This document shows positions 955-54,720 of a DNA stretch of 64,000 nucleotides, in pieces. The notes under the pieces were generated by a model, which was not told the DNA's origin, ran no database searches, and saw only the letters and a program-made list of their open reading frames with translations. The DNA lies in assembly GCA_016177705.1 (NCBI GenBank), contig JACOUT010000005.1, forward strand, positions 30,374-94,373, given 5' to 3'. Both the position numbers and the translations under genes were made by a program. Each line of letters starts with the position of its first letter. The first letter of the stretch is position 1. The stretch comes from Deltaproteobacteria bacterium (lineage in GTDB: Bacteria; Myxococcota; UBA727; VGSZ01).

Positions 955-2208
955 CTACGCGCCGAGCAGCCGCACCGCGGCGGCGACGCCGTCGTCCCCT
1001 CGTAGCCGTACCGCCAGCGCCTCGGCGCGCGCCTTGACGGCCGGGTCGAGTAGCGCGCGCAGGGCGGTGACCAGCCGCTCCGCGTCGACATGGCGGAACG
1101 GCACGCGCGCACCCACGCCGTTGGCGATCAATCGGCGGGCCCAATAGGGCTGGTCCACCAGGAAGTGGCACACGACCGCCGGCAAACCCGCGCGCAGCGC
1201 GGCGTGCGTCGTGCCGGCGCCGCCGTGGTGCACTGCTGCACGACAGCGCGGCAGCACCGCGTCGTGATCGAACGCGGGCGCGACGAACGTGCGCGCCCCG
1301 CGGCCGCCGCTCGGGCGCAGCGCGCTCCAGCCCGCGCCGACGAGGCCGCGTACGTCGAGCTCGGCGCACACGTCGTCGACGATCGCCAGCAGGCGCGAAG
1401 GGTCACGCACCGGCATGCTGCCGAAGCCGAAGAACACCGGCGCGTCGCCGGCGGCGAGCCACTCCTCGAGCCCCGACGGCGGGGCGCCTTCGCCCAGCTG
1501 TGCCCGTGTCGCCGGGTCGAGCACCAGCGCACCGGTGACAATGTGGTGCGACGGCCAGTCTCGCGGTCGCGGCTGCAGCACCTCGCTGTAGAGGTGCAGC
1601 GTCAGCGCCGCCAGCTCCTCGGCGCGCGCGTGCACGTTGCCGCGCGGGGGCGTCACGCCGAGCCTTGCTGCCGTGGCGCACGCGGTCGCGGCGCCGCCGC
1701 GTCCCAGCGTGCCGAGCAGGAACACCGCCGACAACCGGTTCAGCGCCCCACCGAGGTCACCGACGTCGATGAGCGGGAACGGCAGCTCGCGCGTCGGCAC
1801 GGTGGGCCCGAGCGCGACCCGCACCAGGCGCGCGCCGCGCGCCGCCACCACGGCCAGCGCAGGGCCCACCATGAGCGGGTGCGCGATCACCACCTCGGCG
1901 TCTTCGCCGGCGCGCGCGAACGCCTCGACGAGCTGCGGGCGGTGCTCGGCGTCGAGCCGCATCAGCGCGCGCGCGAACGCGAGCAAGCTGCCGTCCTCGA
2001 CGAAGCGCTGGCCGAACTCGCTGTGTAACACCTCTTGCGCGCCGAACGGCAGCGGCACCGCGGCGATGCCACCCGCCTCGGCGAACGCCACCAGGTCCCG
2101 CGGCGTCGTCATGGCGACGGCGTGGCCGCGCTGCGCGAGCGCGGCGCCGAGCGCGACGAGGGGCTGCACATCGCCGCGGGTGCCGGTCGTGAGGATCGCG
2201 ATGCGCAC
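955..2208 (-). CDS. GT1-family UDP-glycosyltransferase (MGT/UGT-like)
   Basis: 417 aa, N-terminal 'MRIAILTTGTRGDVQP', C-terminal 'HHGGAGTT' nucleotide-sugar binding signature typical of GT1 (GT-B) enzymes. Confidence 0.8.
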   Translation of the reverse strand: MRIAILTTGTRGDVQPLVALGAALAQRGHAVAMTTPRDLVAFAEAGGIAAVPLPFGAQEVLHSEFGQRFVEDGSLLAFARALMRLDAEHRPQLVEAFARAGEDAEVVIAHPLMVGPALAVVAARGARLVRVALGPTVPTRELPFPLIDVGDLGGALNRLSAVFLLGTLGRGGAATACATAARLGVTPPRGNVHARAEELAALTLHLYSEVLQPRPRDWPSHHIVTGALVLDPATRAQLGEGAPPSGLEEWLAAGDAPVFFGFGSMPVRDPSRLLAIVDDVCAELDVRGLVGAGWSALRPSGGRGARTFVAPAFDHDAVLPRCRAAVHHGGAGTTHAALRAGLPAVVCHFLVDQPYWARRLIANGVGARVPFRHVDAERLVTALRALLDPAVKARAEALAVRLRGDDGVAAAVRLLGA

Positions 2209-2280
2209 GCGTCCCGCATAGCGCGCCGGCGTAGCGAGCCCAACCTGCTACCGTGTGGCAACCCTCTGGTGGAGGAGCTC

Positions 2281-4897: not shown

Positions 4898-5605
4898 TCA
4901 CTGCGGCGCGGCGCAGGCGACGTTGGAGGAGTGCCCGCCGCGATCTTCGGTCCACACCGCCAGCTCGCGATCGACGCGGTCGACGCAGCCGAGCACGACG
5001 ACGGTGCCGGCAGCGGCGTCGCCCGACTGCGACAGCACAGCGTCGATCTGAAAGACGTACGGGAAGCCGACGAAGGACTGGCTCTGCACGAACACCGCGG
5101 CGCCCGAGTCCGTCGCCAGTTGCCACATGTCAGCTTCTCGATCGAGGAACGAATAGCTCACCCGCACACCTTCGAGGTCGGGGTCGCACGGCGAGGTCGC
5201 GATCACTTCCACGTCGAAGATCGCCGGCCCTCCGGCCTGCCGCGGCTGCGCGTTCGAGCCCGCGGCGCAACTGGGCGCCGCGCCACCAACGCACTGGGCC
5301 GCGGCACAGGGAGCCACGTCGCAGCAGAGCCCCGGTGCGCACGACCCATCCGTCGTGCAGGTCGGGTCGCCTTCGCCTTCGCCCTCTCCTTCGCCCTCGC
5401 CCTCTCCTTCGCCTTCGCCTTCGCCGGGTGGCGTGTCTTCTGCGCAGACGCGGTCGACGCAGTACGGCAGCGACTCGGGGCAGTCATCGTCGTCGTCGCA
5501 GCGGACGCGCGCTCCGTCGCAGCCGTCGAGGGCCGCCACACACCCGAGCGCGAGCACGACCGCGGCCACCGGAGACGGCCAGCCTCGGCGCTGCGCGCGG
5601 GTCAT
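4898..5605 (-). CDS. secreted lipoprotein: signal peptide, Cys motif, (GE)n tract (copy 1 of the recurring module)
   Basis: 'VVLALGCVAALDGCDGARVRCDDDDDCPESLPYCVDRVCAEDTPPGEGEGEGEGEGEGEGEGD', then a ~130 aa Cys-containing domain. Overlaps the upstream gene by 4 nt. Confidence 0.7.
   Translation of the reverse strand: MTRAQRRGWPSPVAAVVLALGCVAALDGCDGARVRCDDDDDCPESLPYCVDRVCAEDTPPGEGEGEGEGEGEGEGEGEGDPTCTTDGSCAPGLCCDVAPCAAAQCVGGAAPSCAAGSNAQPRQAGGPAIFDVEVIATSPCDPDLEGVRVSYSFLDREADMWQLATDSGAAVFVQSQSFVGFPYVFQIDAVLSQSGDAAAGTVVVLGCVDRVDRELAVWTEDRGGHSSNVACAAPQ
5368..5426. repeat. GGYGAR hexanucleotide microsatellite encoding (Gly-Glu)n
   Basis: 'gccttcgccttcgccctctccttcgccctcgcc...' read on the + strand; in-frame within 4898..5605. 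Confidence 0.85.
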
Positions 5606-6433: not shown

Positions 6434-8086
6434 TCACGCTCGTGGCGCGGCGGCGTAGTCGGGATAGGCTGGCGACCACAGCAGCGATCGGACGTGGGCG
6501 TCGAGGTCGTGCGGAGGCGGCGCGGTCGCCAGCCCGCGCGCGAACGCGACCTGCGCGACCGCGCAGGCGACGCGCACCGACACCTCGCGCACGCGCGACA
6601 GCCTCGGGAAGACGCGCCCAACCGCGAGATCGTCGTCGCCAACCTCTGCCGCCAGCGCCCGCGCCGCAGCCAGGAACATCTCGTCGGTGACTAGACGGCT
6701 GCGCGCGGCCACCACGCCAAGGCCGATTCCCGGGAAGACGTACACGTTGTTGCCCTGACCCGGCTCGATGCGCCGCCCCCCGAACGTGAGGGGCGGAAAT
6801 GGGCTGCCGCTGGCGAAGATCACGCGGCCGCCGGTGGCGTTCACCGCGGCCTCGGCGGTGCACTCGGCCTTGGCGGTCGGGTTGGAGAGCGCGAACACGA
6901 TCGGCCGCTGGTTGAGGGAAGCCATGCGCGACAGCACCTGGTCGCTGAAGGCGTTGGCCTGCGTGGAGGTGCCGATCAGCGCGGTAGGCCGCAGCGCCTC
7001 CACCGCGTCGAGCAAGGTCGAAGCCGGAGCGTGCTCGTGCGCGAAGTGCACCTTGTGGCCGGCCAGCGTGCCGTCGTTGCGAGCGCTCGTGACCAGCCCT
7101 CGCGAGTCGAACAGCCAGCATTGGCGTCGCGCGTCGCTCTCGGCCATCCCGTCTTGGACCGCGGCCGCGACGAACAGCTCGGCGATCCCGGTACCCGCCT
7201 CGCCCGCACCGAAGAACAGCAGGCGCTGCTCGCGCAACGACGTACCGCTGAGACGCAACGCGGCAACCAGCCCGGCGACGGCGACGGCGGCAGTACCTTG
7301 GATGTCGTCGTTGAAGGTGAGCACGCGACCGCGATAGCGCTCGAGCAAGCGGAACGCGTTGTTGTTGCCGAAGTCTTCGAATTGGATCAGCAGGCCCGGC
7401 CAGCGTTTGTTGAGTGCGCCGACCAGCTCCTCGACGAGCGCATCGTAGCGTTCGTCGCGTGTGCGACGACGCTTGAGGCCGAGGTAGAGCGGATCGGCGA
7501 GCAGCGCCTCGTTTTCGGTGCCGACGTCGAGCGTGATGGGCAAGCAGCGCAGCGGGTCGAAGCCGGCGCACGCGGTGTAGAGGGCGAGCTTGCCCACCGG
7601 GATGCCCATACCGTTGGCACCGAGATCGCCGAGCCCGAGGATGCGCTCCCCGTCGGTCACGACCACCACAGATGCGTCATCCTGCCAGTTGTCGACGATG
7701 CGCCCCACCCGACCTGCGTCTTCGATGGTCACGTAGAGGCCGCGGGGTCGGCGGAAGATCTGCCCGTAGCGCTCGCAGGCGAGGCCGACCGTGGGCGTGT
7801 AGACGATCGGCATCATCGTCTCGAGGTGCTCGGCCAGGAATCGGTAGAACAGGCGCTCGTTGCGGTCCTGCAGACCGATGAGCGCGATGTACTTCTCGAG
7901 GTCGTTGGGCTTGCTGTCGAGATTGTGCTTCACGCGCGCGACTTGCTGCTCCGCCGTCTGCACGCGGGGCGGCAACAGGCCGCGCAGGCCGAGCAGATCG
8001 CGCTCCTCTTCCGTGAAGGCGGTCCCCTTGTTGAACGCCGGATCGTGCAGCAGTGCGATGCCGGTCGGGAGCTGGTGGGGGCTCAT
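6434..8086 (-). CDS. maeA: NAD(P)-dependent malic enzyme
   Basis: 550 aa; 'IVYTPTVG', 'FNDDIQGTAAV', 'FGAGEAG', 'FALSNPT' malic-enzyme signatures. No C-terminal PTA domain. Confidence 0.9.
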   Translation of the reverse strand: MSPHQLPTGIALLHDPAFNKGTAFTEEERDLLGLRGLLPPRVQTAEQQVARVKHNLDSKPNDLEKYIALIGLQDRNERLFYRFLAEHLETMMPIVYTPTVGLACERYGQIFRRPRGLYVTIEDAGRVGRIVDNWQDDASVVVVTDGERILGLGDLGANGMGIPVGKLALYTACAGFDPLRCLPITLDVGTENEALLADPLYLGLKRRRTRDERYDALVEELVGALNKRWPGLLIQFEDFGNNNAFRLLERYRGRVLTFNDDIQGTAAVAVAGLVAALRLSGTSLREQRLLFFGAGEAGTGIAELFVAAAVQDGMAESDARRQCWLFDSRGLVTSARNDGTLAGHKVHFAHEHAPASTLLDAVEALRPTALIGTSTQANAFSDQVLSRMASLNQRPIVFALSNPTAKAECTAEAAVNATGGRVIFASGSPFPPLTFGGRRIEPGQGNNVYVFPGIGLGVVAARSRLVTDEMFLAAARALAAEVGDDDLAVGRVFPRLSRVREVSVRVACAVAQVAFARGLATAPPPHDLDAHVRSLLWSPAYPDYAAAPRA

Positions 8087-21036: not shown

Positions 21037-22578
21037 TCACGGCGGCGTTGCGCCAAACTCGAACGCGCCGGCGTCACATGCGCCGTCAGTGCGCAAGAAG
21101 CCGCGCTGGTCTGCAGGCGGGCAGGTGACGGACGCGGCGGCGCCTCTGGCGGGGCTGGTAGCGGCGATTGACAGCGTCGGGGTCAGGCCGCCCTGGTTCG
21201 CGACATTGGCCGCGAGCTGGGGATCGGCGAAGACGTCGCCGTAGATGATGCTGAGGCCGCAATCTGTGTCGACGGTGGGCGAGACGTTGCCGCCGAGTGA
21301 GAGGAACTGCCCGTCGTTGGCGAAACAGGTGCCGGCCGACGGGTCGTCGATGATGGAGCCGAGCAGCACGACTGAGCCGGGCGGCCCCTCTTGATCGTCG
21401 AGCCGCGCCATCGCGCCGGTGTTGCCGCGGAACGTGGTGTGCACCAGCTCGATGGTCTCGTCGCCGCAGATGAAGATGACCTCCTGGCCGGCGTTGGCGA
21501 AGAAGGTGCTGTTCTCGAAGCGCACCGTGCCCTCGGTGGCGCAATTGACGTCGATGGCGCCGCCGCGGTTGTCGCTGATGTTGCCGATGAACAGCGAGCG
21601 GCGGATCACGACGTTGGCGCCGGGCACCGCCAGGTAGAGTGCGCCGCCGACGTCGCCGGCGCGGTTGCGATCGAGGACGCAGTCCTCGAGCAGCATGGTG
21701 GCGTTGTCGTGCACGCCGATGGCGCCACCGCGGGAGTAGCCCGGCGGCGTCTCGAGCCGGTTCATCACGAACGACGCGTGGTGCCCCTCCAAACGGGCAT
21801 TGCCGAACAGCGCGATGGCACCGCCTTGGTAGTAGACGGTGTCGACCGAGGTGCTGACGTTCTGCCGAACGTCCACGTCCTCGAGCAGCAGGGTCGCGCT
21901 CGTGGTGACCACCGCGGCGGCGGCGTGGGTGGTGGAGACGCCGCCCGCCAGCATCATGGTGCGCAGCCGCAGGCGCACCGTGCCGCTCAGGACGAACAAC
22001 CGGTTCGTGCCGCCGCCCTGCAGCGCGACGCCGTTGCCCTCGATGGTCAGGTCGCCGACGTCGAGGTTGAGGCTCGAGCCGATGCCGATGGTGCTGAGCG
22101 CGGCCTCGATGCAGATGGTGGTCGGCAGCGGCCCGAGCTGGTTCGCCTCGTCGAGCGCCGCTCGCAAGGTACAGCCACCGCTTGGCGCCAGGCACGTGCC
22201 GTCTGGGGCAGCGTCCCCGTCGTCGAGCTCGGAGGTGACCTTGAACGCGCCGACGCAGGCCGGCTCCCCCTCACCTTCGCCTTCGCCCTCACCCTCACCT
22301 TCGCCTTCGCCCTCACCCTCTCCTTCGCCCTCACCCTCGCCTTCGCCCTCACCCTCGCCTTCGCCCTCTCCTTCACCCTCGCCTTCGCCCTCTCCTTCAC
22401 CCTCGCCCTCCCCCTCGCCCTCGCCCTCGGCCGAGCGGCACGCGCCCTCGACACACCGTTGCCCGGCTTCACAGTTCGCATCGCCCTGGCACGGCAGCGG
22501 CGCCAGACCAAAGGACAGGCAACCCGCGACCAGCGCGGCGAGGAGCGCCAGCGCCAGCACCCATCGGCGCCCGCTCAC
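21037..22578 (-). CDS. lipoprotein: Cys motif, ~35x(GE), then right-handed parallel beta-helix domain (copy 3 of the module)
   Basis: GTG start at 22578 overlaps the upstream TGA (GTGA): 'VSGRRWVLALALLAALVAGCLSFGLAPLPCQGDANCEAGQRCVEGACRSAEGEGEG...'. C-terminal beta-helix repeats ('NRLFVLSGTVRLRLRTMMLAGG', 'GGAIALFGNARLEGHHASFVMN', 'GGALYLAVPGANVVIRRSLFIGN', 'GGAIDVNCATEGTVRFENSTFFAN'). The upstream ~380 codons of ORF 21037..23730 are poly-Arg junk. Confidence 0.75.
   Translation of the reverse strand: MSGRRWVLALALLAALVAGCLSFGLAPLPCQGDANCEAGQRCVEGACRSAEGEGEGEGEGEGEGEGEGEGEGEGEGEGEGEGEGEGEGEGEGEGEGEGEGEGEGEPACVGAFKVTSELDDGDAAPDGTCLAPSGGCTLRAALDEANQLGPLPTTICIEAALSTIGIGSSLNLDVGDLTIEGNGVALQGGGTNRLFVLSGTVRLRLRTMMLAGGVSTTHAAAAVVTTSATLLLEDVDVRQNVSTSVDTVYYQGGAIALFGNARLEGHHASFVMNRLETPPGYSRGGAIGVHDNATMLLEDCVLDRNRAGDVGGALYLAVPGANVVIRRSLFIGNISDNRGGAIDVNCATEGTVRFENSTFFANAGQEVIFICGDETIELVHTTFRGNTGAMARLDDQEGPPGSVVLLGSIIDDPSAGTCFANDGQFLSLGGNVSPTVDTDCGLSIIYGDVFADPQLAANVANQGGLTPTLSIAATSPARGAAASVTCPPADQRGFLRTDGACDAGAFEFGATPP
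22268..22428. repeat. GGYGAR microsatellite (~27 units) encoding (GE)n
   Basis: 'ccctcaccttcgccttcgccctcaccctc...' in-frame within 21037..22578. Confidence 0.85.
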
Positions 22579-23246
22579 GGCTCGCCTCCGGCGGCGACGC
22601 CGACGATGACACCGCCGGCGATGGCGAGCAGCACCCCCGCGCCGGCGCCGACGGCGCTCACCTGCCCGACGGCGCGCAGCGCGCCGCGCTCGGCGCCCGG
22701 TCGCGTCGGATCGGCGAGCGCGCTCTCGGCGTAGGCGAGCCCGCCCGCGCCGCCGACGAGCACCACCGCGCCCGCCCCCGCCACCACCGCGCCCGCCACC
22801 ACCGCAGTCGACGGCCCGTCCTGCTGCGCAGGCGGGACCGGCGCCGGCAGCGCCTCCGGGCGCGGCAGAGCAGGGGCTTGCGCGGCGCGCTCCGCCTCCA
22901 CCTCCTGCCGCACGCTCGCGAAGAACAGCGCCACCTTGGGCGGCGCGTCGGCGTCGAGCGTGGTCTCGGGCGCGCGCAGCAGCACGTAGCGGAAGTTGAT
23001 GCGAGCCTCCAGGTCGCGCCCGAGGATGCGGTGCGCGATGCCGGCGAGCAGGTTGGCGCGCAGCTTCTCGTCGTCGCTGGCCTCGGGAGCGGTGGCCGCG
23101 CGCATCAGCTCGTCCGCCGCGATCTCGTAGTCGAGCGCCGCCATCGCCGCTTCGCCTCGGGCGAGGTGTTGGGCGGGGGTGACGGGCGCGGCGACGGCGA
23201 CGAGCGCGGCGAGCAGCAGCACGGTGGCAGCATACCGTGCGCGCAT
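22575..23246 (-). CDS. module partner (copy 3): signal peptide, TPR-like helical domain, Pro/Ala linker, double Gly/Ala-zipper tail
   Basis: ATG at 23246: 'MRARYAATVLLLAALVAVAAPVTPAQ'. Tail 'VVAGAVVAGAGAVVLVGGAGGLAYAE...VSAVGAGAGVLLAIAGGVIVGVAAGGEP'. Confidence 0.6.
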   Translation of the reverse strand: MRARYAATVLLLAALVAVAAPVTPAQHLARGEAAMAALDYEIAADELMRAATAPEASDDEKLRANLLAGIAHRILGRDLEARINFRYVLLRAPETTLDADAPPKVALFFASVRQEVEAERAAQAPALPRPEALPAPVPPAQQDGPSTAVVAGAVVAGAGAVVLVGGAGGLAYAESALADPTRPGAERGALRAVGQVSAVGAGAGVLLAIAGGVIVGVAAGGEP

Positions 23247-23362
23247 GATCCGGGCGGGGTTGTCGCAGGCGGTGCAGGTGCGCATCCTGGCTCGATGTCC
23301 TTGCGCGAAGACGTGGCGCTGCCGGAGCCGGTGCGGGACGCCCTCGACCGTGCGAGGATGCC

Positions 23363-26910: not shown

Positions 26911-28704
26911 TCACGGTGGCGAGCAGGAGCCGTCGATGCGGCAGAGGCCGCCGCCGCACTCGAGGTCCGAAGCGCACCGGTCGAGCACGGCGCCGAAGAT
27001 CTCGGACGCGCGCGCCGCGTCTTGTGCGCGCACCTCGAGCACCAGCCCGTCCCCGCGCACGCAGCCGCACTCGGTGCAGGCCGCCGGGTCGAGCGCGCCC
27101 TCGTGGTCGAGCGACACCGCCGCGAGCTGGTGGCTGGCGAGCGCCCAGGAGAGCACGCCGAGCAGCTCGTCGAGGGAGCCCGGCTCGCCCTGGTAGCCTG
27201 CCTCCTGCCAGGGGTTGGCGCACACGGTCGGCGCCACGCGGAACAGCACGCTGGTTGGGCAGGGCGCGTCGACCAGCATCTCGGTGGCGTTGCCGCACTC
27301 GTCGCGCAGGTCGCAGGAGAGGTGCACGTCGCCGTTGACCGGGTCGCCGGCGGTCGCTGTCTGCGCGCACTGCCGGCAGCTCGCCACCGCCGGCCCGTTG
27401 TCGAGCGTCAGCGACGTGCCGTTGACATCGGCGAGCGCGAAGGCACCGAGCACGGAGCAGCTCTCGCCGTTGCAGCTCGAGTAGATGGGGGCGCCGGTCG
27501 AGGGGTCGTAGCAGATCTCGCAGCCGGCCGTGCCGTCGGCGCCGGGCAGCGTCTCACACGAGGGCGGCGGCGCGCCGCCGCAGTCGCGGTACACCTCCAC
27601 GCCGGTACCGAGGTCGTAGCAGACCGTGCACCGCTGCGTTGGGTCGAGCAGCTCCTCGCACGCGAGCGTCGGCTCGCCGATGCACTGCGTCTCGACGTAG
27701 CCGTCATCGGCCGGGCAGCTCCGGCACAGGCTGCCGTCCTCGGCGTACTCGAACCAGCAGGGCTCGGCCGGCGCGCAAGCGTCGCCGGGAGCACAGTCGT
27801 TGCGCTCGCACGAGGTCGAGCTGACGCCGCCGTATTGGTCGAGGCAGACCACGCAGGTCTGGTCGGTGTAGGCGAGCACCTCGCACTGTTGCGGCGCTGG
27901 CACGTCGGGGCTGCAGCTTTGGTCGACCACGATGCCGTTGGCGTCGACGCAGGTGGTGCACCACAGGCCGTCGACGGTCACGCTCTCGACGCACGACACC
28001 GGCACGGTGGTGTCGGAGCAGCGGTGGCTCAACAGCACGTCGCCGCTCCAGCAGTCGACGCAGCGGCCGACGTCGTTGGCGTAGGCCTCGCACACCTCGG
28101 GATCGAGGCGGTCGTCGCCGGCGCCGGCGCAATCTTGCACCACCACCTCGTTGTCGCGCGTGCAAACCCGGCAGGTGGCGTCGCCGAGCACCTCGGCGTG
28201 GCACTCGTCGCTTGCAGGCTCGCAGCGGTTCTCCACCACCACGCCGCGCTCGTCGCGGCAGACCGCGCACGCCATGTCCGCCGACACCGGGTCGTTCGGG
28301 TCGACGGGCGCGGGCTCGCACGCGAGGTCGCCCTGCGCGCCCGGCACGAAGCAGTCGTCGAACAACACCTCGCCCAGGTCGGTGGCGCAGTAGCGGCACT
28401 GCTGGCCGTCGGCGTCGAAGCGCAGCTCGCACTCGGCGACGGTCGGCTCGCCGCAGATGGTCACGTCGCCGCCGGCGGTCTGGCACGAGGCGCAGGTCTC
28501 GCCCTCGTTGCGCTCGACCGCGGTGCCGTCGCAGCCCGGGCTGGTGACCGCGCATGAGCCGTCCGCGCACGGGTCGCGCTCGGGCCCGCCGTCCTCCTCG
28601 CCGACGCATTGGGGCAAGGTGGGGTCGAAGAAGCAGTCGCAGCCGAGCGCCGTCGCCGCGCCGAGCACGGCGAGCAGGGAGCGCAGGAGCGAGCCGGGCG
28701 CCAT
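26911..28704 (-). CDS. secreted lipoprotein built from ~10 Cys-rich ~22-aa repeats (CxxC-x2-D/N-x2-G-x(5,7)-C)
   Basis: Lipobox 'LGAATALGCDC'; repeats 'QCRYCATDLGEVLFDDC', 'ACAVCRDERGVVVENRC', 'TCRVCTRDNEVVVQDC', 'RCVDCWSGDVLLSHRC', 'WCTTCVDANGIVVDQSC', 'TCVVCLDQYGGVSSTSC', 'LCRSCPADDGYVETQC', 'RCTVCYDLGTGVEVYRDC', 'GCEICYDPSTGAPIYSSC'. Confidence 0.7.
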   Translation of the reverse strand: MAPGSLLRSLLAVLGAATALGCDCFFDPTLPQCVGEEDGGPERDPCADGSCAVTSPGCDGTAVERNEGETCASCQTAGGDVTICGEPTVAECELRFDADGQQCRYCATDLGEVLFDDCFVPGAQGDLACEPAPVDPNDPVSADMACAVCRDERGVVVENRCEPASDECHAEVLGDATCRVCTRDNEVVVQDCAGAGDDRLDPEVCEAYANDVGRCVDCWSGDVLLSHRCSDTTVPVSCVESVTVDGLWCTTCVDANGIVVDQSCSPDVPAPQQCEVLAYTDQTCVVCLDQYGGVSSTSCERNDCAPGDACAPAEPCWFEYAEDGSLCRSCPADDGYVETQCIGEPTLACEELLDPTQRCTVCYDLGTGVEVYRDCGGAPPPSCETLPGADGTAGCEICYDPSTGAPIYSSCNGESCSVLGAFALADVNGTSLTLDNGPAVASCRQCAQTATAGDPVNGDVHLSCDLRDECGNATEMLVDAPCPTSVLFRVAPTVCANPWQEAGYQGEPGSLDELLGVLSWALASHQLAAVSLDHEGALDPAACTECGCVRGDGLVLEVRAQDAARASEIFGAVLDRCASDLECGGGLCRIDGSCSPP

Positions 28705-29644: not shown

Positions 29645-29816
29645 CAGCAGGCCCTGACAAGAGCGTCGCATCGGCCGGGTGTCCGACCGAGCGCGGCGCC
29701 GCCGGCCTTGCGCTCGTCGACGTGTCGGGTACGGTGCCAGGCGTCCCGGACCAACCGGGATCATGCCGGCTCGACCGGCCAGGAACCCGGCCGAACGGCC
29801 CCCCAGGAGAGGTCAC

Positions 29817-30650
29817 ATGCGGAACGTGCTGCTTTGTTGTTCGTTGGCGTTGGTTGCGTCGGGCGCGGCGTTCGCGCAGGGCGAGGGAGAGGGCGAGGGC
29901 GAGGCCTGCGGCGCCGTCACGCTCGAGGGCGAGTGCCAGGGCACGGACGCCGTGTGGTGCCAGGACAATGTCCTGCAGCGCGTGACCTGCGCGGATCTGC
30001 TGGGTGATGGCAGCGTGGTCGGCAGCTGCGAGGTCTACACCGGCTTCGGTTCGTGGTGCGCCTTCAACGACGGCGACCCGTGCGCGTTCCAGACCCAGGA
30101 CGGCAACGCCATCTACTTCGCTTGCGCCAACGACAGCTCGGGCTGCGTCGACGGTCAGTGCACGGCCGGCACTGGCGCCTGCACGCCCGACGCGGATCCG
30201 CAGAACCCCACCGTGACCTGCCTCGACGGCGGCAACCTTCAAATCGGCTGCCAGCCCTGGGCGCAGGCGTTCGTCTACACCTGCGCGGGCATCAGCGCCG
30301 CCTCCACCTGCGCCAACGACGTGTGCGGCAACGTCGGCTCGGGCGATCCGTGCGCTGACGGCATCGCCGAGTGCGGCGGCGGCCTCTCCTGCGGCGCCGA
30401 CAACACCTGCGGTGGCGGCGGCGAGGGCGAGGGCGAGCCCGCCGAAGGCGAAGGCGAGGGCGACAACGGTGAGTGCGCCAGCGACCGCGACTGCGACGAA
30501 GGCGAGATCTGCGACAACGGCGAGTGCACCGGCGGTGGCGAGCAGCCCCCGGTGTGCAGCCACACGGCCACGAGCGCCGGTCTGCCGGCGGCGGGCCTGT
30601 TGGCGCTCGGCGGTCTGGTGATCGGCGTGCGCCGTCGCCGTCGCGCCTGA
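29817..30650 (+). CDS. Cys-rich secreted protein with short (GE)n tracts and MYXO-CTERM-like tail (array member 2, paralog of 28877..29644)
   Basis: SD 'ggagag' then ATG 29817: 'MRNVLLCCSLALVASGAAFAQGEGEGEGEACGAVTLEGECQGTDAVWCQDN' (compare 'CGTLSAEGACFGEVAAWCSEDN'). C-terminus 'PPVCSHTATSAGLPAAGLLALGGLVIGVRRRRRA'. Confidence 0.7.
   Translation: MRNVLLCCSLALVASGAAFAQGEGEGEGEACGAVTLEGECQGTDAVWCQDNVLQRVTCADLLGDGSVVGSCEVYTGFGSWCAFNDGDPCAFQTQDGNAIYFACANDSSGCVDGQCTAGTGACTPDADPQNPTVTCLDGGNLQIGCQPWAQAFVYTCAGISAASTCANDVCGNVGSGDPCADGIAECGGGLSCGADNTCGGGGEGEGEPAEGEGEGDNGECASDRDCDEGEICDNGECTGGGEQPPVCSHTATSAGLPAAGLLALGGLVIGVRRRRRA

Positions 30651-32788: not shown

Positions 32789-32798
<10 letters not shown>
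31935..32798 (+). CDS. polysaccharide deacetylase (NodB homology domain, CE4)
   Basis: GTG overlapping the dgkA TGA; 'RATLFIVTED', 'HEIASHSHRHR' (H-S-x-x-H zinc motif), 'RGFRAPGY'. Confidence 0.8.
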
Positions 32799-35017
<2,219 letters not shown>

Positions 35018-44155: not shown

Positions 44156-45274
44156 TCAGCGCCGGGCAGGCTCGAGCTTCGGCCCGCGTAGCTCGGTGTA
44201 CGACGACGCCGCCAACAGCAGGTCACCGTCCGGCGACAGGCTGACGCGCCCGTCGCCGCCCACCGGGCCCGCCCTGGCGCCGTGCGGCAGCGTCCAGCGC
44301 GCGGCCACCGGGGAGCCGGTGACCAGCAGCGTACCGTCGCGCGCCAGCGCGATCGAGCGCGTACGACCGCCGACGTCGATGGCGGCGGTGCGTTCGGCGG
44401 AGTCGACGCGCCACACCTCGGCGCGTCCGTCGAATGCGAAGGCGACGCGTTGGCCATCGGCGGTAATGGCCGAGGCGCAGCCGATCCGCTCGCTCACTTC
44501 CTTGGGCGTGAGGCGCGCGGGGAAGCGGAACAGCTCGTTGCCGCGCTCGGCGTCCCACACGACGGCGACGCCGTCGGGGCCGAGCACCGCGATCACCAAC
44601 AAGCCGTCCGAGTGGAAGGCGACGTCGCGCAACGGGCGATCGACGGCCGGCGAGCGCCACAGCGGCACGCCGGTGCCGGCGTCGAGCACCACCGCGAAGC
44701 CGCGTCGCAGCAGCTCCTCGATCAACACGTCGCCGACGACGAGACGGCCGCCGTCGGGCGCGAAGGCGATGGCAGTGACGGCGTGCAGCGACGCGGTCCA
44801 GGCCAAGCTGCCCTTGGTGGTGTCGTAGACGCGCACCTCCGGGTGGCCATGGCTCGCCACCGCCAAGCGTGCGCCGTCGGGGGAGAGCGCGATGCGATCG
44901 GGCACGCCGACCTCGGTGACGCGCAGCACCAGCGCGGCGTGCTCGCCGCGGCGCACCGGCGCGAGATCCCAGACGTGGACCTTGCCCTCGGACGACGTCG
45001 CCAGCCAGCGACCGTCCCTCGAGAAAGCGGAGGCCACCAGCGAGAACTCACCGGCCGCGCGGGCGACACCGGCCGGCGCGCGCTTCGACCGGCGACGCGC
45101 CGCCGGCTTGCGGCGCACGCCGGCTTTGGCCTTGGCCTTCGTTGTGGCCTTGGCCTTGATCTTGGTCTTCTTGCGGGCCACCGGCTTCGCGCGCACCTTC
45201 GCGCGGGCGCGTGGCTTTGGCTTCGCCCTCTTGCGGGTCTTCGCCTTCGCCGTCTTCTTCTTGCGGGACGCCAT
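44156..45274 (-). CDS. WD40-repeat protein with Lys/Ala-rich (histone-H1-like) N-terminal tail
   Basis: 'MASRKKKTAKAKTRKRAKPKPRARAKVRAKP...' then WD-like blades ('VHVWDL', 'VRVYDT', 'VAVVWDA'). Confidence 0.7.
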   Translation of the reverse strand: MASRKKKTAKAKTRKRAKPKPRARAKVRAKPVARKKTKIKAKATTKAKAKAGVRRKPAARRRSKRAPAGVARAAGEFSLVASAFSRDGRWLATSSEGKVHVWDLAPVRRGEHAALVLRVTEVGVPDRIALSPDGARLAVASHGHPEVRVYDTTKGSLAWTASLHAVTAIAFAPDGGRLVVGDVLIEELLRRGFAVVLDAGTGVPLWRSPAVDRPLRDVAFHSDGLLVIAVLGPDGVAVVWDAERGNELFRFPARLTPKEVSERIGCASAITADGQRVAFAFDGRAEVWRVDSAERTAAIDVGGRTRSIALARDGTLLVTGSPVAARWTLPHGARAGPVGGDGRVSLSPDGDLLLAASSYTELRGPKLEPARR

Positions 45275-45432: not shown

Positions 45433-46287
45433 ATGTCGACGCCGCGAAACACCATGGTCTCCCCCCGCCCCCATCGCGCGGTGGTCGCCGCGTTGCTCTG
45501 CTCGGTGCTCGGCTGCGCGCGCGCGGCCGACGCTGCCGAGCTGTCGCCATCGACGTTCGCGACGTTGACCAGCGTCATCACCGTCGCGCTCGGCCGCCAC
45601 GAGAATCTCGACGTGCTCTCCTCGTCCGATGTGCGGCGCGCCGTCGAGCTCGAGGGCGACAAGCGCGCGCTCGGCTGCGCGGAGCAGACCTCGTGCCTGG
45701 CCGAAGTCGCGGGCGCCATGGGCGCTCGGCTGGTGGTGTTCGGTCAGCTCGGCGACCTCGACGGCGAGCTGGTGCTGACGCTCAACCTCTATGACTCGCA
45801 GTCGGCGAGCGCGGTCGGCCGAGCGCTCGAGCGCGCCCCCGACTCGCGGCGCTTGGCGGCACAGCTCGAAGGAGCCGTCGACCGGCTACTCGCGCGCACG
45901 CTCTCCTCGCTCAAGGCGGGCGAGCGCCTGCGCATCCTGGTGCTCGACCTCGAGCCAGGCGCGCCGACAGCAGCGCCTGGGCCTGCCGAGGCGGCGGCCG
46001 CGACCACCTCGTCCGACGAGCCAACTCCCTGGCTGCTTTATGGCGCGGGCGCCACCGCGGGCGTCGCGGCGCTGGCGGTCGGCGTTGGTGCCGTGCTCGG
46101 CGGACTCAACGTCGCGGAGCTCGATGCCGGCGCCAAGGAGCCGCTCGCGAAGAAGGCGCTGGAGCACGATCAGGCGGCGCAGGTGCTCGGCCTCGGCGCC
46201 AACGCCTCCTTCCTCACGTCTGCGGCCGCGCTGGTGGTCGCCGCCAGTCTCGGCGCTGCGCACCTCGTCGTCGGAGGGCCGGAATGA
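45433..46287 (+). CDS. module partner (copy 2), paralog of 5602..6381
   Basis: ATG near 45433: 'MSTPRNTMVSPRPHRAVVAALLCSVLGCARAADA'. Conserved 'LGCAEQTSCLAEVAGAMGARLVVFGQLGDLDGELVLTLNLYD'. C-terminal zipper 'GAGATAGVAALAVGVGAVLGG...SAAALVVAASLGAAHLVVGGPE'. Confidence 0.65.
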   Translation: MSTPRNTMVSPRPHRAVVAALLCSVLGCARAADAAELSPSTFATLTSVITVALGRHENLDVLSSSDVRRAVELEGDKRALGCAEQTSCLAEVAGAMGARLVVFGQLGDLDGELVLTLNLYDSQSASAVGRALERAPDSRRLAAQLEGAVDRLLARTLSSLKAGERLRILVLDLEPGAPTAAPGPAEAAAATTSSDEPTPWLLYGAGATAGVAALAVGVGAVLGGLNVAELDAGAKEPLAKKALEHDQAAQVLGLGANASFLTSAAALVVAASLGAAHLVVGGPE

Positions 46288-46793
46288 GAATCGTGGCGCT
46301 GCTGGCGTCGATGATCGCGCTCGGCTCGTGCTTCGGCCGCGTCGACCTCGAGGGCAAGCAATGCGGGGCCGACGAGGACTGCGGCGACGGCTACGTGTGC
46401 CGCGACGAAGTCTGTCGCGCGACCGGTGAGGGTGAAGGCGAGGGTGAAGGCGAGGGTGAAGGCGAGGGTGAAGGCGAGGGTGAAGGCGAGGGTGAAGGCG
46501 AGGGTGAAGGCGAGGGTGAAGGCGAGGGTGAGGGCGAGGGTGAGGGCGAGGGTGAAGGTGAAGGTGAGGGCGAAGGCGAGGGTGAGGGTGAAGGCGAGGG
46601 TGAGGGTGAAGGCGAGGGTGAGGGCGAGGGCGAAGGTGAACCGCCCGCCACCGTGCTGCTGGCCGGCATCGAGTCCGGCGGCGGCATGGTCCAAACCGCG
46701 GGGGGCGAGCTGCGGCTCTTCGCGGGCGGCCTGGAGATGCCCACCAGGGCGTGCAGCGGTGTTGTGTGTTTGCTCGGAGGGATCGCGCCATGA
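46284..46793 (+). CDS. lipoprotein: signal/lipobox, Cys motif, ~36x(GE), short tail (copy 2 of the module)
   Basis: ATGA overlap with the partner; 'MRIVALLASMIALGSCFGRVDLEGKQCGADEDCGDGYVCRDEVCRATGEGEGE...'. Confidence 0.7.
   Translation: MRIVALLASMIALGSCFGRVDLEGKQCGADEDCGDGYVCRDEVCRATGEGEGEGEGEGEGEGEGEGEGEGEGEGEGEGEGEGEGEGEGEGEGEGEGEGEGEGEGEGEGEGEGEGEGEGEPPATVLLAGIESGGGMVQTAGGELRLFAGGLEMPTRACSGVVCLLGGIAP
46424..46640. repeat. GE-coding microsatellite containing a perfect 12-bp unit 'ggcgagggtgaa' x~9
   Basis: 'gaaggcgagggtgaaggcgagggtgaa...' read directly. Confidence 0.9.
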
Positions 46794-47734
46794 GGCTGGT
46801 CATCAACGTCTCGAACACCTTGCTGCGCCGCGCGCTCGGCGCCGCTGCCATCAGCGGCCTGCTCGCGGGCGCGTACTTCATCGGCAGCGCGCGCGCCGAT
46901 GGCATCCCGACCGGCAACGCCATCTTCTATTCGGGCCTGCTCGAGGAAAGCGGCGTGCCCGCCGAGGGTGATCGGTCCGTCGTTATTCGCCTGTTCGACG
47001 CGCCCTCGGCTGGCACCGAGCGCTGCACCACCACACTGACGGCGACGTTCACGGCCGGTCGCTTCCGCGTGCCGCTGGTCGGTGCGTGCACGGCCGCCAT
47101 CCACACCTACGCCGATCTGTTCGCCGAGGTGAGCGTGGGCGTCTACACGCTGCCGCGCACCAAGCTCGGCGCCGTTCCCTACGCCGTCGAGGCCGAGCGT
47201 GCGACGCAGGCACAGGTGGCCGACGACGCCAACCTGCTCGGCGGCTCGGCGCCGAGCGCGTTCGCGACTGCCGCGCACAATCACGACACCGGCGCCATCA
47301 CCAGCGGCACCTTGCCGATCAACCGCGGCGGCACCGGCATCAACACCGTCACCGGCAATGCCAACCGCGTGCTCGGCGCCAACTCCGGCGGCACCGGCTA
47401 TGAGCTGAAGGCGATCAACGGCACCTCGGGCCAGATCGCGGTCACGCAGGCACCGGGCGCCGTCGCGCTCAGCCTGGCCGCCGGCGTGCCGCGCGGCTGC
47501 TCCTATGAGAGCAATTCGACCGCCACGCAGCAGACGCAGGTGACCTGCCCAGCCGGCAAGTACGTCGTCGGTGGCGGCGGCGCCTGCGCGCCGAGCAACG
47601 ACCAGGGGCAAGCGACGGAGAACCGTATGAAGTACACGCGGCCGCTGAGCAACCGCACCGGCTGGGAGACCATCTGCACGGTCACCGACGGGTCGAAGTC
47701 GACGTACTCGTATGCGATCTGCTGCACCGAGTGA
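46790..47734 (+). CDS. secreted Gly/Thr-rich fibre-like protein with Cys-rich C-terminal knob
   Basis: ATGA overlap with 46284..46793; signal 'MRLVINVSNTLLRRALGAAAISGLLAGAYFIGSARA'; 'SGTLPINRGGTGINTVTGNANRVLGANSGGTGYELKAINGTSGQIAV'; C-terminus 'CPAGKYVVGGGGACAP...YAICCTE'. The sequence line numbering and the ORF track disagree by 1 nt here. Confidence 0.55.
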   Translation: MRLVINVSNTLLRRALGAAAISGLLAGAYFIGSARADGIPTGNAIFYSGLLEESGVPAEGDRSVVIRLFDAPSAGTERCTTTLTATFTAGRFRVPLVGACTAAIHTYADLFAEVSVGVYTLPRTKLGAVPYAVEAERATQAQVADDANLLGGSAPSAFATAAHNHDTGAITSGTLPINRGGTGINTVTGNANRVLGANSGGTGYELKAINGTSGQIAVTQAPGAVALSLAAGVPRGCSYESNSTATQQTQVTCPAGKYVVGGGGACAPSNDQGQATENRMKYTRPLSNRTGWETICTVTDGSKSTYSYAICCTE

Positions 47735-51555: not shown

Positions 51556-53355
51556 CTACAGCCCGAGCCGCGCGTTCACCTCGGCCTTGGTGCGCTGGCC
51601 TTGCGCCTCGAGCCGCGCGCGCGCCGCCGCGATCTCGCCACGCGCGCTCACCCTCGCCACCAGCTCGTCGTACAGCTTGATCTTGGGCTCTGTGCCCGAG
51701 GGGCGCACCGTCAGGCGCGCGCCGTCCTCGGTGTGCAGCACCACCACGTCCGCCGGGTTGCCGTCCCTCGCCAGATCGTCGACGCGCACCACCTTCTTGC
51801 CGTCGAGCACGGCCGGTGGATCCTTGCGCAACGCCGCCATCGCGCCCTTGATGCGCTCCATGCCCGAGGCGCCGGGCATGGTCACCGACCAGTTGACGGC
51901 GTGCGACAGGCCGTGCGCGACGAACAGCTCCTCGAGCCGGTCGAGCACGGTCTTGCCCTCCGCCTTGAGCGCGCGCGCCAGCTCGGCGAAGCGCACGGCG
52001 GCGCCGATGCCGTCCTTGTCTTTCACCAGCGGGCCCACCGAGTAGCCGAGCGCCTCCTCGTAGCCGCACACGAAGTGCTCGCCGTGCGGCGCCCGCTCCA
52101 TGGCCTTGTTGGCGATCCACTTGAAGCCGGTGAGCGTCTCGGCGTACGCGGCGCCCTTGTCCTTGGCCATGCGTGACAAGAACGTCGACGACACGATGGT
52201 GGTGACGACGAGCTTCTTGCCGGCGCCCACCGGCAGCGGCTGGTGGTCGAGCGCGTCGGCGCACAGCAGCATGCCGATCTCGTTGCCCGACAAGAGCCGA
52301 TAGGCGCCGTCCGTCGCAACGGCGACCGCCAGTCGATCGGCGTCGGGGTCGTTGGCGAGGATCAGCTCGGCGCCGGCCTCCTTGGCGACCGCGATGGCGC
52401 GGTCGAGCGCGCCCTTCTCCTCGGGGTTGGGAAACGCCACCGTGCGGAAGGTGCCGTCGGGATCGGCCTGGGTCGGCTCGTCGATGACGCCGAGAAAGCC
52501 GGCCTCGGCGAGCGCTCGCAGCGCCAGACGATGACCGACGCCGTGCATGGCGGTGTAGACGATGCGCAGCGGCGCGCCGCCGGCCGACGCGCGGTGCCAA
52601 GCCAAGCCGCGCACGGCGTCGAGGTAGGCGCGCTCGACGTCGTCGGCGACCAGCCTGCGCACGCCGCGCGCCGCGGCGTCAGGTGGTGCCACGCGCTCGA
52701 TCGCGTTCGGCGCGGGCGCCTTGGTGATGCAGGCGGCGATGCCGGAGTCGTGCGGCGGGATGATCTGCGCCGCGTTGGCCCAGTAGACCTTGTAGCCGTT
52801 GTCGGCCGGCGGATTGTGGCTCGCGGTCACCATGACACCGGCGGCGGCGCCGAGCTGCTCGACGGCGAACGCGCACAAAGGGGTCGGCACCGGGTCGAGG
52901 AAGACGAGTGCAGGGACGCCCTGCGCCGCCAGCACCGCGCAGGTGTCCTCGGCGAATTGGCGCGACGACAGGCGGCCGTCGAAGCCGACCACCACGCCGC
53001 GCTTGCGGGCGTCGACGCCGAAGCGCGCGCCCTCGTCGAGCAGGTAGCGGCCCACGCCCCAGCTCGCCTGCATGACCACGCTGCGGTTCATGCGGGCGCT
53101 GCCCGCCTCGACGCGCCCGCGCAGGCCCGCCGTGCCGAAGCTCAGCGTGCCGGCGAAGCGCTCGACGAGGTCGGCGCCGGCCGCGTCGTCGCCGGCCTCG
53201 GCGCGAGCGAGCAACGCCGACAGCTCGGCCCTGGTCTCCGGGTCCGGATCCTCGGCGAGGAACTTGCGCGCGCGCGCCAGCGTCTCAGTCAACTTCCCTG
53301 TGCTGGTCCCTGTGCTGGTCCCTGTGCTGGTCCCTGTGGTCGATCCTGCGGCCAT
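51556..53355 (-). CDS. alpha-D-phosphohexomutase (phosphoglucomutase/phosphomannomutase family, PgcA-like)
   Basis: 'VTASHNPPADNGYKVY' active-site loop (phosphoserine), 'GFDGR', C-terminal domain conserved. Confidence 0.85.
   Translation of the reverse strand: MAAGSTTGTSTGTSTGTSTGKLTETLARARKFLAEDPDPETRAELSALLARAEAGDDAAGADLVERFAGTLSFGTAGLRGRVEAGSARMNRSVVMQASWGVGRYLLDEGARFGVDARKRGVVVGFDGRLSSRQFAEDTCAVLAAQGVPALVFLDPVPTPLCAFAVEQLGAAAGVMVTASHNPPADNGYKVYWANAAQIIPPHDSGIAACITKAPAPNAIERVAPPDAAARGVRRLVADDVERAYLDAVRGLAWHRASAGGAPLRIVYTAMHGVGHRLALRALAEAGFLGVIDEPTQADPDGTFRTVAFPNPEEKGALDRAIAVAKEAGAELILANDPDADRLAVAVATDGAYRLLSGNEIGMLLCADALDHQPLPVGAGKKLVVTTIVSSTFLSRMAKDKGAAYAETLTGFKWIANKAMERAPHGEHFVCGYEEALGYSVGPLVKDKDGIGAAVRFAELARALKAEGKTVLDRLEELFVAHGLSHAVNWSVTMPGASGMERIKGAMAALRKDPPAVLDGKKVVRVDDLARDGNPADVVVLHTEDGARLTVRPSGTEPKIKLYDELVARVSARGEIAAARARLEAQGQRTKAEVNARLGL
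53296..53340. repeat. 12-bp tandem repeat 'ccctgtgctggt' x3.75, encoding (TSTG)n at the N-terminus of the phosphohexomutase
   Basis: Read directly; gives '[13 protein letters not shown]' in the minus frame. Confidence 0.85.
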
Positions 53356-54687: not shown

Positions 54688-54720
54688 CAGTGCCTTCTCA
54701 GTGCCTTCTCAGTGCCTTCG
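54688..54720 (+). promoter_or_regulatory. 3 x 11-bp direct repeat 'cagtgccttct' in the intergenic region upstream of the T3SS block
   Basis: Read directly at 54688-54720, 12 nt after the ctpA stop and ~170 nt upstream of the ATG at 54891. Confidence 0.6.

Follow-up and report, generated by a model that had tools for sequence, protein, structure and literature searches.

A conserved gene pair encoding a predicted membrane partner and a stalked lipoprotein in Myxococcota

We analyzed a 64,000-nucleotide stretch of DNA (hereafter the window) from a metagenome-assembled genome (MAG) of the Myxococcota (assembly GCA_016177705.1, contig JACOUT010000005.1, positions 30,374 to 94,373; locus tags HYS27_…; GC content about 71% throughout). 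The window carries three gene pairs in which gene A, encoding a protein with a type I signal peptide and two Gly/Ala-rich C-terminal segments, is joined by a 4-nt start/stop overlap to gene B, encoding a predicted lipoprotein with a Gly-Glu repeat, (GE)n. This A-B pairing is conserved well beyond orthologues and is widespread in Myxococcota. We give an even chance to the explanation that the module combines a membrane partner with a translationally coupled, stalk-displayed binding module. What is new here is the arrangement of an accessory protein and a modular lipoprotein, and it is built of known folds. An earlier note, made from the sequence alone, had been aware of no described system with this layout. 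This agrees with our literature searches, in which no published description of the pairing was found, and we found no curated family for it.

Results

Three overlapping gene pairs and a fourth (GE)n lipoprotein

The genes in question lie in the frames that the earlier note had proposed, on both strands, as confirmed by the frames themselves, by the junctions and by the GC content at third codon positions (GC3), which is 0.73-0.92 in the called frames of the A, B and C2 genes. The following features were assigned (in lipoboxes, a slash stands before the Cys):

45433..46287, plus strand: gene A2 (HYS27_10060, MBI1946031.1); signal peptide I, predicted TolB-N/LpoB/CsgG-like head, Pro/Ala linker, two Gly/Ala-rich helices
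46284..46793, plus strand: gene B2; predicted 169-aa lipoprotein with lipobox ALGS/C, 11-aa tether, four-Cys module CGADEDCGDGYVCRDEVC, (GE)36 and a tail of ~45 aa
46425..46640, plus strand: (GE)36 tract of B2; DNA repeat with a period of 12 nt and 89% matches
46790..47734, plus strand: gene C2 (HYS27_10070), 314 aa; signal peptide, N-domain of ~100 aa, tail-fibre shaft motif at residues 152-199, Cys-containing tip
5602..~6381, minus strand: gene A1, start codon uncertain; head homologous to the A2 head, two Gly/Ala-rich helices that match the family profile
4898..5605, minus strand: gene B1; predicted lipoprotein with Cys modules, (GE)9 and a small C-terminal domain without family assignment
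5372-5425, minus strand: Gly-Glu tract of B1, 9 units
22575..23285, minus strand: gene A3 (HYS27_09955); signal peptide, predicted small TPR head, Pro/Ala linker, two Gly/Ala-rich helices, end in GGAGG
21037..22578, minus strand: gene B3; predicted lipoprotein with four-Cys module CQGDANCEAGQRCVEGAC, (GE)27 and a CSLREA / right-handed beta-helix / choice-of-anchor-Q distal domain
22267-22428, minus strand: Gly-Glu tract of B3, 27 units
~32846..35017, plus strand: gene B4; predicted orphan stalked lipoprotein with lipobox, four-Cys module, (GE)33 and a large distal domain with an MXAN_6577-like Cys-rich block
33002-33199, plus strand: Gly-Glu tract of B4, 33 units

Gene B overlaps gene A by exactly 4 nt at all three A/B junctions, just as had been described (ATGA at A1/B1 and A2/B2, GTGA at A3/B3), and C2 is joined to B2 by an ATGA as well. 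A scan of the window for such overlaps (upstream open reading frame (ORF) of at least 150 aa, downstream ORF of at least 100 aa, GC3 cut-offs) listed 14 junctions, but a two-segment tail together with a downstream lipoprotein was found only at the three A/B junctions. The Gly-Glu tracts were located by a six-frame search of the window. Three copies of the module had been counted before; this holds for the A-B pairs, whereas the (GE)n lipoprotein genes number four. The fourth, B4, has no gene A upstream, where a polysaccharide-deacetylase-like ORF ends at 32798. Likewise, the tracts had been given as 30-36 units, while they actually span 9, 27, 33 and 36. The database name of A3, A2 and C2 is in each case "hypothetical protein", and for A3 NCBI places the start at a later codon, which gives a protein of 215 aa.

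The pairing is conserved across Myxococcota

A word-indexed search with A2 returned just 13 relatives. An exhaustive profile search with the A family, run on a representative library clustered at 50% identity, recovered 9,334 representatives at E <=1e-3 and 729 at E <=1e-30, most of them about 250-300 aa long and matching over the full profile. Scanning of species-representative genomes yielded 80 A loci, all of them from Myxococcota and including Archangium and Myxococcus MAGs. Several Myxococcota MAGs carry 3-6 gene A paralogues.

The two-segment tail was present in 65 of the 78 evaluable Myxococcota loci. A lipoprotein gene lies directly downstream of gene A in 52 of the 78, and in 36 of these 52 with the identical 4-nt overlap, compared to 145 lipoprotein-like ORFs among 591 background ORFs (odds ratio 6.2, p 6e-13), a background set that was deliberately generous and includes spurious high-GC ORFs. 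When at least three Cys were required within the first 80 mature residues, a lipoprotein was counted at 34 of 78 A loci and for 53 of the 591 background ORFs. Genes in these other loci were called by simple ORF rules, and the tests for lipoboxes and low complexity were based on regular expressions. The earlier note would have given up its proposal if the pairing were absent from related genomes; these counts show that it is kept there. Independent metagenomic contigs with distant A homologues also retain the order of A followed by B. Finally, a metagenome scan with the A3 alignment gave four loci, two of them usable, and in these two A3-type (TPR) loci a GTGA-overlapped lipoprotein with the Cys module follows.

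Two unusual arrangements were seen among the relatives. In P0042, a protein of 983 aa from the representative library, a single ORF runs from a complete gene A product, with its head and two helices, into another signal peptide with lipobox and Cys module. Here A and B are either fused in nature or joined through a frameshift. In locus L088 (~6720-7965, plus strand) a second gene A-like gene stands, with a 4-nt overlap, downstream of a gene A relative in place of the lipoprotein. Hence, tandem A genes also occur.

Two types of head domain in gene A

The heads of A1 and A2 are homologous (34% identity over 116 aa, E 3e-12), as the earlier note had seen. A3 showed no sequence relationship to A1 or A2 by BLAST or hhalign. 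No Pfam or NCBIfam model scored above threshold on A1, A2 or A3, and PHROGs gave no match for A2, A3 or C2. In the AlphaFold2 model of A2 the head has a pLDDT >90 and is followed by a helical hairpin (residues 200-233 and 240-280). Foldseek with the A2 head retrieved TolB and LpoB with a probability of >=0.99, at weak E-values. Longer A relatives pass the Pfam cut-offs for LpoB (42.9 bits vs 22.3), TolB_N (26.9 vs 22.4) and DUF3280 (41.1 vs 30.1). The A1/A2 head is an alpha/beta sandwich that superposes on TolB-N, LpoB, CsgG or PelC; besides CsgG and PelC, its structural relatives include LptE, PqiC and proteins of the flagellar outer ring. Judged from these models, the A1/A2 head belongs to the TolB_N/LpoB/CsgG/PelC-like fold class. 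The alignment of the A family contains an invariant G-C-x5-C-LAE motif, located in the head of A2. Its Cys pair likely forms a disulfide, and the invariance of the pair is consistent with an exported protein in an oxidising compartment. Gene A encodes a type I signal peptide and no lipobox, and orthologues are without the Cys. Compared with the other members of the family, the A2 clade looks circularly permuted, the first beta-strand RLRILVLDLEPG ('LRILVLDL') being placed after the head and not before it.

For the A3 head, which had been called TPR-like, the model reaches a pLDDT of ~98. The top Foldseek matches are all TPR domains (YbgF/CpoB, PilF, RPAP3, PelB; probability 1.00, E 0.02-0.2), and no Pfam TPR model matches at threshold. 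By this model the A3 head is a small TPR fold.

Several candidate assignments were discarded. Matches to the folds of EndoV, a ribosome hibernation factor and PTP were dismissed as generic alpha/beta sandwiches. A lead to DUF2380 was dropped, because Pfam PF11684 (DUF3280) is described as 'DUF2380' while the SitA6 toxin papers mean pfam09533, which is another family. Architecture and context rule out gene A as an anti-sigma factor, a CsgG pore or an LpoB orthologue: A lacks the outer-membrane lipobox that marks LpoB proper, and there are no penicillin-binding protein, Tol-Pal, curli or Pel genes near the A loci. It had been conceded that the module would lose its meaning if A proved to be a known LpoB/CsgG-type family without link to B. 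One half of this came true, as the fold class is indeed that one, but the link to B is kept.

A Gly/Ala-rich hairpin and a buried ribosome-binding site at the end of gene A

In both head types a Pro/Ala linker is followed by two Gly/Ala-rich segments (median 22 and 23 aa, Gly+Ala ~45%), with a median of four [GAS]xxx[GAS]xxx[GAS] zipper motifs per tail. On the Kyte-Doolittle scale, the most hydrophobic 19-aa stretch averages ~1.9-2.0 in the median, and AlphaFold2 models the tail as a helical hairpin. The tails of A1 and A2 are homologous at profile level (E 1e-12). By contrast, hhalign of the A family against A3 gave no match; the "same tail" that the earlier note ascribed to A3 thus holds by composition, and we claim no homology for it. 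No glycine-zipper family of Pfam (PF05433, PF13488, PF13441) matched A1, A2 or A3 at E<=1. In a Hessa-scale insertion test the A tails were not separable from bona fide inner-membrane proteins of the window.

The extreme C-termini turned out to have another meaning. The endings 'GGPE', 'ERGP' and 'GGEP', which had been listed as a feature of the A proteins, can be ruled out as a protein motif, since they are the embedded Shine-Dalgarno sequence (GGAGG) of the next gene read as protein. The last codons of A2, A3 and B2 contain GGAGG 6-9 nt before the next start codon. In other genomes, a Shine-Dalgarno-like core was found in the final A codons at 23 of 41 junctions with a 4-nt overlap, compared to 12% of control windows taken within the same genes. 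A Shine-Dalgarno core buried in the last codons of A is direct sequence evidence for translational coupling of A and B.

Gene B encodes predicted lipoproteins with flexible stalks and swappable distal domains

In the B proteins, a signal peptide with lipobox is followed by a tether of 10-14 residues and a four-Cys module, and a spacer of low complexity then leads to the C-terminal domain, which is swappable. This bears out the lipoprotein with long spacer and variable C-terminal domain of the earlier note. From their lipoboxes (LALG/C in B1, ALGS/C in B2, LVAG/C in B3, TAAA/C in B4), B1-B4 are predicted lipoproteins. The residues at position +2 are hydrophobic or small, without Lys or Asp, which by known lipoprotein sorting rules suggests targeting of B to the outer membrane. 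Similar tether motifs (…SPY[GY]R[AP]C) occur with both A head types.

For the Cys module, the pattern C-x2-D-x2-C-x2-G-x2-C-x2-G-x-C had been proposed. It fits only B3, but the four-Cys module itself is shared, in the form C-x5-C-x5/6-C-x4-C. None of the profile hidden Markov models for Cys modules that were compared (Myxo_Cys_RPT TIGR04201, EB, DUF7107, Dickkopf_N) reached its curated cut-off, so that we speak of resemblance only; the best scores were 13.4 bits vs 25 for TIGR04201, 16.9 vs 24.3 for EB and 13.9 vs 24.6 for DUF7107.

The spacer is variable. Depending on lineage, relatives use (GE)n, (GD)n, (GGSAA)n, (GGTA)n, S/G-rich or D/A/G-rich spacers, and we conclude that the conserved feature is a flexible low-complexity stalk and not its charge. 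The (GE)n chemistry, which had seemed a defining trait, is thereby ruled out as essential and is specific to lineages. Even among orthologues the length of the GE tract differs (36 units in B2, 23 in L003). Public metagenome and MAG contigs (L001, L002, L004, L013, L034) repeatedly end within the GE repeat. As contigs break there, databases contain gene B in shortened form or not at all, and B1-B4 are not retrieved by exact-sequence look-up. Matches of B to TrAA12, Trypan_PARP, ser_rich_anae_1 and a K+/Ca2+ exchanger cover the GE tract only and were rejected as low-complexity artefacts.

A Pfam search of 51 B proteins identified Kelch, FG-GAP and RCC1 propellers, beta-helices, EGF/TSP3/DUF4215 repeats, the FGE-sulfatase fold, Ig-like domains and LTD; no nuclease or other toxin domain was found among them. 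By these domain assignments, the distal part of B is a binding or adhesin repertoire. In B3 the distal domain matches NCBIfam NF041518 (choice-of-anchor Q; 53.3 bits vs a cut-off of 25), with Beta_helix (25.0 vs 25.9) and CSLREA_Nterm (17.7 vs 25) below threshold.

Related building blocks were noticed elsewhere in the window. A large RCC1-repeat protein (2035-4857, plus strand), convergent with B1, has a probable start with lipobox (…LVVPAC) and a D/G/A-rich acidic spacer, and appears to be another stalked lipoprotein, here without the Cys module. At 29679-30650 (plus strand) a Cys-rich secreted protein with short runs of GE carries the same Cys module, CASDRDCDEGEICDNGEC, and ends in a MYXO-CTERM-like tail, …GLLALGGLVIGVRRRRRA; Cys module and GE runs are therefore used generally in building the secreted proteins of this genome. 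A very Cys-rich lipoprotein of 597 aa (26911-28704, minus strand) carries the same small Cys module CASDLECGGGLCRIDGSC at its C-terminal end.

B2 and C2 form a separate unit with a fibre-like protein

B2 differs from the other B proteins in that (GE)36 is followed not by a distal domain but by the tail of ~45 aa. This tail is conserved in the orthologues L003 and L093 and in two distant genomes, L094 and L100. In each case the small lipoprotein with this tail is encoded immediately upstream of a C2 homologue, and in L094 and L100 there is no gene A. The B2-C2 arrangement is thus a separate conserved unit, distinct from the A-B pairing.

The earlier note had described the third, ATGA-coupled gene as fibre-like, and this was corroborated. 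A phmmer search of the PDB with C2 matched the R2-pyocin tail fibres 6cl6, 6cl5 and 6ct8 (E 1e-7 to 7e-7, residues 152-210). Relatives of C2 have the N-terminal 33-48% in common, while their tips vary (C1q, fibrinogen_C, FGE-sulfatase, Collar, Xlink, Peptidase_S74). On sequence grounds, C2 is a fibre-like protein with a conserved N-domain, a shaft motif and a tip that is swappable across the family. In this it resembles the MAT fibres of Bdellovibrio, where a signal peptide and a conserved N-terminal domain are likewise followed by a tail-fibre shaft with a swappable tip; among the relatives of C2, Peptidase_S74 is one of the tips. C2 is shorter, however, with 314 aa compared to ~600-1,100 aa. 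The N-domain of MATs is predicted to bind an unidentified surface element (PMC10769870). No lipoprotein partner has been reported for MATs, whereas C2 has a dedicated stalked lipoprotein gene coupled upstream. Since the B2 tail is conserved beside C2 homologues and the layout of C2 is MAT-like, B2 may be a lipid-anchored stalk for the fibre, its tail holding the N-domain of the co-encoded C2.

Other features of the window

The neighbours downstream of B1, B3 and C2 are convergent housekeeping genes, and no immunity-like gene is among them. Neither a scan for promoters and terminators nor Rfam gave anything informative over 44-48.5 kb. Divergent from A2 lies a gene for a WD40/beta-propeller protein with a Lys/Ala-rich N-terminus (44156-45274, minus strand), a neighbour that is kept in the orthologous loci L001-L004. 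Perfect short tandem repeats are located at 53295-53348 (12 nt x 3.7) and 54688-54719 (11 nt x 2.9), both with 100% matches.

Discussion

A possible function of the module

In the explanation that we favor, the gene A product would be an exported adaptor with a disulfide-containing periplasmic docking head of one of two interchangeable types (TolB-N/LpoB/CsgG/PelC-like or TPR). The Pro/Ala linker would connect this head to a C-terminal Gly/Ala-zipper hairpin, which would hold A in the membrane and probably drives its self-association. Through the 4-nt overlap and the ribosome-binding site within the last codons of A, B would be made in step with A. B itself would be an outer-membrane-type lipoprotein whose constant part is a short hydrophobic tether, usually with the four-Cys knot, and whose spacer, (GE)9-36 in this genome, would keep a swappable binding or adhesin domain off the membrane. 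Both proteins would act as a pair: A would serve B through its hairpin end, and the head of A would attach the two to some other component of the envelope. That the hairpin end is the part that most likely serves B is suggested by the tail and the pairing, which stay constant while the head is swapped, together with the tether motifs shared among the B proteins. We infer physical contact of A with B and of B2 with C2, a membrane location of A and surface display of B.

Some observations weigh against this explanation. About one third of the A relatives have no B that was recognisable by our gene calls, and A is not obligatory for B-type lipoproteins, since B4, L094 and L100 are without gene A. 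The Cys module is missing from many B relatives, for example from the (GGSAA)n group. The A1/A2-type and A3 tails are alike only in composition, and their likeness could be convergence. Furthermore, of the loops between the two A helices in 67 relatives, 47 carry a net negative charge and only 5 a positive one. This is atypical for the cytoplasmic loop of an inner-membrane hairpin, and A may lie in the inner or in the outer membrane.

The negative loop, which runs contrary to the positive-inside rule, would suit a different reading, in which A is not a static partner but a dedicated factor for export or surface exposure of its lipoprotein. Outer-membrane hairpins would oligomerise under a ring of heads, and the spacer of B would pass through or alongside them, so that the distal domain comes to lie outside while lipid anchor and Cys knot remain at the inner face. 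In its function, A would then be akin to Slam with its surface lipoproteins, to SitB with SitA or to the threading of RcsF through outer-membrane proteins. We regard this as possible but doubtful. It fits the structural relatives of the A head, nearly all of which are outer-membrane-proximal and several ring-forming, and the extracellular appearance of the B distal domains and the C2 fibre. Glycine-zipper hairpins of SlyB and YfgH do sit in the outer membrane (bioRxiv 10.64898/2025.12.22.696046), and SitB, likewise encoded by an overlapping upstream accessory gene, boosts lipoprotein delivery without being essential (PMC5562445). However, A is neither a lipoprotein nor a beta-barrel, and no Lol-independent way is known by which a hydrophobic hairpin would get to the outer membrane. 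The hydrophobicity of the tail is sufficient for Sec stop-transfer, a glycine-zipper match in Pfam is absent even at E<=1, and B-type lipoproteins also occur without A. A more specific version, which we consider quite unlikely, would make A a non-beta-barrel route for lipoprotein surface display, with heads forming rings over an outer-membrane bundle of Gly/Ala-zipper hairpins and the B spacer threaded through. If it were true, the swappable adhesin, or the tail-fibre-like trimer on the B2 tail, would reach the cell surface, and the class of surface anchor that MAT-type predatory fibres have been missing would be identified.

It is unlikely, in our estimate, that A and B are co-expressed without forming a physical pair. 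A would then have a general role in envelope organisation or stress, like Tol-Pal, Lpo or SlyB, and would stand only by chance at the head of operons for secreted lipoproteins, and the 4-nt overlap would merely reflect the compact operon structure of high-GC genomes. Such overlaps are in fact common, as the 14 junctions listed in the window illustrate, the head fold class of A serves many unrelated envelope systems, and the incomplete co-occurrence of A and B described above points the same way. Yet two sequence-unrelated A types pair with the same lipoprotein class, and the enrichment over background is strong. Several A-B pairs with different distal domains have expanded in parallel within single genomes, as expected of cognate pairs, and the fused or frameshifted P0042 exists.

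Relation to known systems

In layout, SitB-SitA(-SitI) comes closest to the module. There, too, the gene for a lipoprotein with conserved N-terminus and swappable C-terminal domains overlaps with an accessory gene that lies upstream and encodes a type I signal, and both systems occur in multiple copies in myxobacteria. The SitB accessory is helpful but dispensable and is missing beside many SitA genes (PMC5562445, PMC8546572). Nevertheless, we hold it to be very improbable that the module is a Sit-type polymorphic lipoprotein toxin cassette, with A as SitB and B as SitA, that is delivered by outer-membrane exchange. The overlap is 4 nt and not 11 nt, and the 51 B proteins, with their propellers, beta-helices, EGF/TSP3 repeats and FGE-sulfatase folds, lack toxin domains; no immunity-like gene follows B1, B3 or C2. 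The constant part of B is a short tether with Cys knot and repeat spacer, while SitA 'escort domains' comprise ~375 aa (PMC8546572). By its description as a predicted beta-barrel without detectable homologues (PMC5562445), SitB is also set apart from A with its alpha/beta head and helices.

With respect to its head, A differs from LpoB, TolB-N, CsgG, PelC and the flagellar outer-ring lipoproteins in that it has no lipobox and would be anchored by a C-terminal Gly/Ala-rich hairpin. The hairpin recalls SlyB, Pcp and YfgH, envelope proteins in which two adjacent Gly-rich helices form a membrane hairpin able to oligomerise. These, however, are lipoproteins with the zipper near the N-terminus, whereas the signal peptide of A is of the cleavable type I and its hairpin lies at the extreme C-terminus. 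The A helices are richer in Ala, Val and Leu, and the likeness to the zippers is compositional only.

Lipoproteins with a long flexible N-terminal linker that are tied to a dedicated envelope factor are also found among the Slam-dependent surface lipoproteins of Neisseria and in RcsF, which threads through outer-membrane proteins, and TPR modules take part in Slam. No DUF560 match was found in A, and its models show an alpha/beta or TPR head with two helices and no beta-barrel.

Implications for the myxococcotal cell surface

If the models hold, the LpoB/CsgG/PelC fold can have a C-terminal Gly/Ala-zipper hairpin as anchor in place of a lipid. Breaks of assemblies in repeat spacers imply that such lipoproteins are systematically truncated in public databases. 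The B2-C2 unit offers a concrete candidate for the tethering of tail-fibre-like adhesins to the bacterial surface, a question left open by the MAT study (PMC10769870). Since relatives of the module occur in the genetically tractable Archangium and Myxococcus, these ideas are testable.

In the Myxococcota, which are social predators, adhesion, kin recognition and contact with prey are driven by proteins of the cell surface. Their lipoproteins number in the hundreds, and to our knowledge no function has been established for most of them. With thousands of A representatives, several pairs per genome and none of them annotated, the module may offer a rule for a large share of these lipoproteins: the partner in the membrane and the knot next to the lipid stay constant, while the length of the spacer can be tuned and the binding head swapped.

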